A stretch of DNA of 36,521 nt from a virus (Duplodnaviria; Heunggongvirae; Uroviricota; Caudoviricetes), in IMG/VR virus record IMGVR_UViG_2778261065_000031, positions 1 through 36,521 of that record; one strand, 5' to 3'. Each line of letters opens with the position of its first letter. Position 1 is the first letter of the stretch. Below the pieces are notes generated by a model. It did no database searches. It saw nothing but the letters and a program-made list of their open reading frames with translations, and was not told where the DNA came from. A program made the translations under genes and the position numbers. This document shows positions 9,157 through 9,430 of the stretch, one piece after another.

Positions 9157-9430
9157 CTGCTGCCGCCTTAGGTTTTCGACCAGGCTTTTTACGCTGTTTT
9201 TCTTCTTGCTCTGGCTCTGGTTCTGGTTCTGGTTCTGGTTCTGGTTCTGGTTCTGGTTCTGGTTCTGGTTCTGGTTCTGGTTCTGCAACATCCTTCAGAA
9301 GATCATCAGGATGTGCAAACCAGCCAGCATCCAGATATTCCTGAAGCTCTTCGGCTTTCACGATTTCAAAGTCGTATCCAACGCCTTTCCATTTCTTCAT
9401 GTCGCCATGACGAAAGATCATGTGTGTCAT
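9134..9430 (-). CDS. Small protein with an (EP)n dipeptide-repeat linker and a basic C-terminal tail
   Basis: ATG at 9430 preceded by GGAG (6-nt spacer); encodes [16 protein letters not shown]...DVA(EP)~12 [15 protein letters not shown]; sits between coat and gp4. Confidence 0.5.
9205..9285. repeat. Hexanucleotide microsatellite: 11 perfect CTGGTT units (9217-9282) flanked by degenerate units
   Basis: Read directly from sequence. Confidence 0.95.

Follow-up and report, generated by a model that had tools for sequence, protein, structure and literature searches.

The closest described relative of the gene discussed here is orf69 of phage P22 (NP_059631; phrog_1175), which PHROGs labels 'unknown function'. 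A search of the literature found no function reported for P22 orf69 or for its counterpart in the window, by which we mean the whole stretch of DNA analysed, 36,521 nucleotides long. The two genes share their slot after the coat stem-loop, their overlap with the start of gene 4 and the order of their elements. They differ in the linker, which in P22 is the short, non-repetitive PVEADDV with no microsatellite, whereas the window gene encodes (EP)12. Similar genes fill the slot between the coat terminator and gene 4 in other phages, namely Sf6 gene 6, HK620 hkbT and an unannotated ORF of APSE-1 (phrog_3251), which also overlap gene 4, have a similar order of elements and carry a KRGRKA motif over the same putative Shine-Dalgarno sequence, TAAGGCGG. 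Unlike the window gene, however, they belong to a separate PHROG and have no EP repeat, and profile-profile comparison could not demonstrate that the orf69 and Sf6 gp6 types are homologous (hhalign probability 2.4%, E 0.019). Literature searches on orf69 with P22, hkbT, Sf6 gp6 and prophage VNTRs returned nothing on this gene or locus, and searches that included the repeat sequence returned no description of the locus or its polymorphism. A repeat_region is already marked there in one GenBank record (APC_JM3.2).

Glu-Pro dipeptide repeats are familiar from the proline-rich (EP)n-(KP)m spacer of TonB, which is thought to be extended between two functional ends. TonB is not homologous to the window protein, which matches only the EP tract of TonB models and scores far below the family thresholds (15.7 bits against 33 in Pfam, 20.6 against 315 in NCBIfam); to our knowledge, the TonB repeat is not a pure hypervariable DNA microsatellite. 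Trypanosome procyclins also have (EP)n spacers and have only composition in common with the window protein. Pfam and NCBIfam searches with the window protein gave compositional matches only, all far below the cut-offs (procyclin PARP, TonB, ClfB and others).

Variable coding repeats are likewise well represented among bacteria. In-frame coding VNTRs are common in bacteria and prophages, and the MLVA schemes used to type E. coli and Salmonella include six-base coding VNTR loci, some of them in prophages. Like the array in the window, the MLVA loci are pure 6-nt arrays with fast whole-unit changes between very close strains; the window locus differs from them in lying within a conserved structural-module gene of P22-like phages. 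The repeat unit of neuO is 7 nt long, so copy number switches its reading frame on and off (phase variation). A tandem short repeat of variable copy number in the coding region of neuO of the P22-like prophage CUS-3 is described in PMC3046976. That gene is a different one, a moron-type O-acetyltransferase, and the unit in the window is 6 nt, with every allele seen in frame.

A parallel of position is provided by lambda gpFI, a DNA-packaging chaperone that is described as bound to the prohead lattice and as acting via non-specific DNA binding (PMC4856287). Its gene, like that in the window, is a small accessory gene directly downstream of the major capsid gene and a stem-loop, and the idea of two modules joined by a linker is similar to the one considered here for the window protein. 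The two proteins have no similarity of sequence or fold, and the window protein does not qualify as gpFI-like.

The window is a phage or prophage of the P22-like kind, with its late operon on the minus strand; portal, scaffold, ejection-protein and tailspike genes are also present. The features around the small gene are as follows.

7238-8656, minus strand: gene 10 (PF11134)
8656-9156, minus strand: gene 4, head-tail adaptor (P22_Tail-4, PF11650), with its first 23 nt lying over the orf69-family gene's 3' end, in the +1 frame
9134-9430, minus strand: orf69-family gene (phrog_1175), 98 codons plus stop, encoding an N-domain, (EP)12 and a C-terminal remainder
9163-9170, minus strand: TAAGGCGG, putative Shine-Dalgarno sequence of gene 4, within P-K-A codons and 6 nt before the gene 4 ATG
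9437-9440, minus strand: GGAG, Shine-Dalgarno sequence as read from the sequence, 6 nt before ATG 9430, in the same layout in relatives
9448-9469, minus strand: GC-rich hairpin GGGAGC-UUCG-GCUCCC with a U-run, directly after the coat stop codon
9475-10770, minus strand: P22-type coat gene (PF11651, E 6e-166)

The hairpin is a coat terminator or an mRNA-stabilising stem-loop; its region has a folding z of -2.6, and an equivalent stem-loop or terminator is annotated in the P22, Sf6 and HK620 records. Most of the divergent relatives read also have a GC stem capped by a UUCG tetraloop (GGGAGC/GGGGC-UUCG-...) with a U-run behind it (L015, L016, L018 and L031-L034 were listed for this feature); the exceptions are P22, with a UGCG loop, and L029, with a different stem. 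The Shine-Dalgarno sequence and ATG of the small gene come directly after this hairpin.

ORF 9134-9430 is, on the evidence of its relatives, a real gene and a homologue of P22 orf69. The window protein matches the phrog_1175 profile over its full length (E 5.1e-32, residues 1-96 against profile positions 1-72 of 72), about as strongly as P22 orf69 itself (E 4.5e-31), and aligns with the latter element by element. In both, an N-domain of beta-hairpin and helix closes with GW-HP and is followed by an acidic linker, then by K(G/P)GRKPKA and lastly by an acidic tail, which is the other reading frame of the gene 4 start. The position after coat gene and stem-loop, with the 3' end over gene 4, is shared by the window, P22, seven close loci and the divergent homologues. 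Placement between P22_CoatProtein and P22_Tail-4 genes, with overlap of the latter, holds for all the homologues, even at 40% identity; these come from genomes of Klebsiella, Pectobacterium and Citrobacter and from metagenome contigs. Thirteen residues are invariant in a 25-sequence alignment of the family, and homologues from Escherichia, Salmonella, Klebsiella, Pectobacterium and Citrobacter retain the invariant residues. Among 22 close alleles, five variable codons of the N-domain are synonymous only and three involve amino-acid changes. The literature searched yielded no expression or proteomic reports for the window ORF or P22 orf69; we infer that the ORF is translated.

The octamer TAAGGCGG is best read as the Shine-Dalgarno sequence of gene 4. 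It is common to the window, P22 (L015) and Sf6 (L016), 6-8 nt 5' of the gene 4 ATG, and it dictates the 'K-A' of the basic motif, so part of the conservation of that motif would be conservation of the gene 4 ribosome-binding site. The genes around it are merely about 40-60% identical between the window, P22 and Sf6, and the octamer is conserved at the nucleotide level.

The repeat lies in the middle of this gene, with the following layout.

9216-9285, minus strand: perfect period-6 tract, in codon register (GAA CCA)x11 at 9218-9283, encoding E50-P71; plus-strand units CTGGTT/TCTGGT
9200-9217, minus strand: degenerate array end, with GAG CCA at 9212-9217 (the 12th EP), GAG CAA at 9206-9211 (EQ) and GAA GAA at 9200-9205 (EE)
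8656-9291 minus strand, 9093-9344 plus strand and 8987-9679 plus strand: repeat ORFs in other frames, from the mechanical ORF list

The minus strand thus reads (GAACCA)11 without a mismatch over 9216-9285, then GAGCCA and GAGCAA. Tandem Repeats Finder reports period 6, 12.7 copies, 98% matches and a score of 145 at 9210-9285, and the regular-expression hits CTGGTT x11 at 9217-9282 and TCTGGT x11 at 9216-9281 are the same array. In the product, (EP)12-EQ-EE makes up residues 50-77, of which (EP)12 plus EQ are residues 50-75. No other repeat in the 36.5-kb window has a unit longer than 2 nt and at least four copies, so a chance origin for these 11 perfect and 2 degenerate units is excluded. The unit is a multiple of three and falls, as GAA-CCA, on codons 50-71 of a real ORF. 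An earlier note on this DNA, made from the letters, had described eleven perfect CTGGTT units with degenerate flanks inside a small gene between coat and gp4, about 50 nt upstream of the gp4 start, and this description holds in each respect: the sequence and both repeat searches agree on the array, the ORF is flanked by the PF11651 and PF11650 genes, and 49 nt separate the last degenerate unit (9205/9206) from ATG 9156, or 60 nt if counted from the perfect tract. The NQ, GS and WF repeat ORFs that the note took for by-products are present in the ORF list and are other frames of the same array. The note did not recognise the gene as a member of the P22 orf69 family, nor did it remark on the difference between the GAACCA unit here and the GAGCCA of most relatives.

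One of these frames raises the question of whether the small ORF is a gene at all or whether the true product is a gp4 with an N-terminal (NQ)n extension starting at ATG 9291. The gp4 frame is indeed open through the repeat (ORF 8656-9291), and the record of phage Dewey (L013, PQ850600) has gp4 called at 1107-1700 as a 197-codon ORF, in the SQ frame, that starts just 5' of the repeat, with the true small gene absent from the annotation. ATG 9291, however, has no properly spaced Shine-Dalgarno sequence, whereas TAAGGCGG and ATG 9156 give a canonical 166-aa gp4 that matches PF11650 from residue 2 and whose gene, at 501 nt, is as long as gene 4 in the P22 record. As a protein, moreover, the N-domain encoded by the small ORF is conserved across genera and occurs in repeat-free P22, and nearly all E. 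coli genomes have the small ORF in their PGAP annotation. We find an extended gp4 hardly credible. A fusion with gp4 by frameshifting, through the +1 frame that the repeat leaves open, was also considered and rejected because stop-free hexamer repeats are open in all frames and the upstream ATG is without a spaced Shine-Dalgarno sequence; that frame has no protein-level conservation.

Variation in the number of units is extensive. A megablast search with a 471-nt region found 219 records in 217 of 5,426 complete E. coli genomes and only eight phage records, with matched stretches of 426 to 591 nt. Among the 60 matches listed (E. coli complete genomes), the distribution had a mode at 6-8 units and a long tail: 21 had 6 units, 17 had 7, eight had 8, and the remaining 14 fell into classes of 11, 12, 13, 14, 15, 18, 19, 20, 24, 29 and 33 units. 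The loci read in 14 relatives all have perfect GAGCCA arrays of 5 to 33 units, in frame, and encode full-length proteins of 84-138 aa; these copy numbers were taken from assemblies, in which long pure repeats are open to miscounting. Variation is also apparent between near-identical genomes. L004 and L006, identical over 3.39 kb of flanks, carry 20 and 18 units, and L011, six SNPs away from both, carries 11. When the first pair was extended to 40.4 kb (L027, L028), covering most of the prophage and the neighbouring bio-uvrB chromosome, the two differed by one SNP and 12 nt of repeat. To judge from these assembled sequences, the comparison shows copy-number change far outpacing point substitution.

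The composition of the arrays has changed as well. The unit is GAACCA in the window and GAGCCA in most relatives. The window's 98-aa protein is present on 16 contigs, and the seven loci shown encode the identical protein with four different arrays: GAACCAx11+GAGCCA (the window's own), GAACCAx12, GAGCCAx12 and an interrupted GAGCCG/GAGCCA array. The arrays of distant homologues are short yet pure: GAGCCAx5 and, in a Pectobacterium homologue, GAGCCTx4. Protein clusters in a large database proceed in length steps of two residues, from at least 74 to 86 aa, and include decayed variants with ES, EL, EQ and DP.

Could assembly or sequencing error have produced these differences? Short-read assemblers and noisy long reads can give wrong counts for pure repeats, which here reach 198 nt, and 4 of the 60 listed records depart by 1 nt from a difference of whole units. 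Two of the four were checked (L003, L007); their missing base falls in the intergenic gap beside the terminator hairpin, outside the ORF (43 against 44 nt), and inside the ORF lengths differ only by multiples of 6. The same alleles turn up in assemblies made independently (L020 with L024; L022, L023 and L025), the records used are complete genomes, and the two-residue steps of the protein clusters argue in the same direction. We give an artefact next to no chance.

The claim that the locus would vary in length by whole units, changing without frameshift, is thus borne out: the range is 5-33 units in 14 relatives and 6-33 among the 60 matches listed, copy number differs among related prophages even where a single SNP separates 40.4 kb, and no allele seen is out of frame. 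The arrays gain and lose whole units, have been homogenised repeatedly and have expanded independently from different units; together these are the signature of slipped-strand mispairing, and we infer that this is the mechanism. The tract is best explained as a coding VNTR, a hexanucleotide microsatellite that is hypermutable and stays in frame, within the linker region of a genuine gene of the late operon that belongs to the orf69 family; to this reading we assign a probability of roughly three in four. Slipped-strand mispairing during replication would add or remove whole 6-nt units, which would leave intact the folded N-domain, the C-terminal basic motif and the overlapping ribosome-binding site and start of gene 4, and the length of the Glu-Pro spacer would be the sole thing to change. 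The repeat cannot switch the gene on and off because a 6-nt unit cannot shift the frame; consistent with this, all 22 alleles read are full-length ORFs, and the array is not part of a promoter, unlike a phase-variable contingency locus.

EP number is 0-5 in most homologues and 5-33 in E. coli prophages. A spacer that tolerates such different lengths would allow copy number to drift quickly and mostly near-neutrally; near-neutrality is an assumption on our part, and the mode at 6-8 units with a long tail and the independent GAACCA and GAGCCA expansions also fit selection for longer spacers. Alternatively, the EP array may be an adjustable tether or ruler, whose length or negative charge sets the reach between a partner of the N-domain and a partner of the basic tail, with mutability maintained as hosts or conditions favour different lengths. 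The independent expansion of GAACCA in the window lineage and of GAGCCA elsewhere would suit such tuning, as would the conservation across genera of an EP linker of some length and the placement of the array exactly between two conserved modules. We nevertheless regard it as unlikely: there is no preferred length beyond the broad mode, P22 orf69 and other homologues work without any EP repeat, and preservation of the frame, being automatic with a 6-nt unit, is not evidence of selection.

A role at the level of RNA is another interpretation of the array, which might act as an unstructured CA-rich leader that opens the gene 4 ribosome-binding site or spaces it from the coat terminator, with EP incidental. 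Folding prediction leaves the repeat unpaired, the segment has a weaker fold than most of its shuffled versions (z +1.32), and the gene 4 Shine-Dalgarno sequence and ATG lie 46-60 nt downstream, inside the ORF. In other lineages, however, EP is kept with GAGCCT, GAGCCG and GAACCA codons and in interrupted arrays, which points to constraint at the protein level, and P22 and Sf6 use the same gene 4 Shine-Dalgarno sequence without the repeat; for these reasons, we consider this role highly unlikely. The six-fold variation in copy number without loss of the prophage's other genes is a further argument against it, and an Rfam search of the window gave no match.

The coding-microsatellite reading places the variable spacer between two conserved ends, which in the window are encoded as follows.

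9284-9430, minus strand: N-terminal mini-domain, residues 1-49, predicted as beta-hairpin, helix, GW-HPD and short helix
9167-9199, minus strand: basic AT-hook-like motif, residues 78-88, conserved across the family

The residues invariant in alignment A2 include W14, G16, Y19, D20, G36, W37, H40, P41 and D42. AlphaFold2 gives pLDDT values of 86-90 for most of the N-domain and of about 50-59 across the repeat, and leaves everything from residue 50 onward unstructured; one structure-prediction alignment was run without the Proteus phage sequence. Modelled alone, the N-domain has a mean pLDDT of 88, with strands at residues 2-14 and 17-25 and helices at 26-34 and 41-48. The EP linker that the earlier note had expected is thus present as a spacer that is disordered in the model and strongly acidic, between two conserved ends, and it is probably extended. 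Polyproline II rises about 0.31 nm per residue, and if the spacer is polyproline II-like, then 5, 12 and 33 units would span roughly 3, 7 and 20 nm. In an E. coli protein of 93 aa (P0145), a 13-residue tandem duplication within the N-domain, DAGWFSHPDDLLK twice, is a second and different kind of in-frame duplication in the small gene.

The basic motif, with its KKPGRKPK, has counterparts in P22 (KGRKPK) and in P0133 (KRRGRPPK). It is AT-hook-like only, as judged by its residues: the window has K-P-G-R-K-P-K, with G-R-K-P in place of the R-G-R-P core of the AT-hook (PF02178) and no Pfam match, and even P0133, with KRRGRPPK, reaches just 14 bits where the cut-off is 17.4. Besides the small homologues, an exhaustive search with the N-domain recovered multi-repeat proteins; several of the latter have GIY-YIG or SegE catalytic domains and NUMOD3 motifs, the architecture of a homing endonuclease. 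These proteins (P0129, P0132, P0136-P0144) contain 3-5 tandem copies of a module of about 33 residues, '..I.K.G..K.V...ELQxYLDDGW..G', for which Pfam has no model. The N-domain of orf69-family proteins resembles one such copy with a longer hairpin. The profile of the module matches the N-domain core 'V..ELQxYLDxGW' with a probability of 96.7% and E 3.6e-10 over only 18 columns (hhalign), and the phmmer matches to module carriers, at 5e-7 to 1e-3, each sum several repeats. In homing endonucleases of the I-TevI type, DNA is bound by the non-catalytic part, and by analogy the repeated module may bind DNA.

The motif shared with nuclease-like proteins and the AT-hook-like tail thus hint at DNA binding by the orf69-family protein itself, and we suggest, with low confidence, that it could be a small DNA-binding accessory of head assembly or DNA packaging. 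One could speculate further that the family is a head-module accessory of all P22-like phages and acts as a two-ended tether, with either the AT-hook-like tail or the N-module, as a relative of the motif repeated outside the catalytic part of homing-endonuclease-like proteins, on DNA, the other end on procapsid, portal or gp4, and the hypermutable (EP)n as an adjustable ruler under fluctuating selection; we hold this to be quite improbable.

The locus reveals no new mechanism, and its value is practical: as a marker that changes fast, as a pitfall for annotation and as a series of linker lengths supplied by nature. Because it differed by two units where 40 kb differed by a single SNP, it could be used to track P22-like prophages in E. 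coli at high resolution. The repeat is a trap for gene callers, as seen in phage Dewey and in strain ECONIH6 (L002), in which PGAP flags an intact 130-codon allele (1732-1977) as an incomplete pseudogene; in APC_JM3.2 (L014), gp4 is labelled 'recombinase RmuC'. All the P22-like phages examined have the orf69-slot gene at the same, conserved position, and its linker forms a natural allelic series of 0 to 33 EP units, with which dependence on linker length would be easy to test once a phenotype is found.

Several observations were made elsewhere in the window and its relatives. Two copies of GTACCAGCAGATTACCAGCAAATTACCAC, each of 11-nt units, lie at 24317-24411 on the minus strand and are followed by an AT-rich stretch. 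They are within ORF 23906-24805, upstream of a DnaB-like helicase gene (22480-23931), and look like origin iterons inside a replication-initiator gene, as in lambdoid phages. An HNH endonuclease gene stands on the opposite strand beside the coat gene in GPEC1446 (L003, 3360-3536) and in phage Dewey (L013, 3247-3429), at a position where the scaffold gene abuts the coat gene in other relatives; this gene may represent the insertion of a homing endonuclease into the head module. This P22-like prophage is also present, with match metrics identical to those of E. coli W, in two assemblies (4.83 Mb) under the strain name E. coli DH5alpha, a label that may be wrong.
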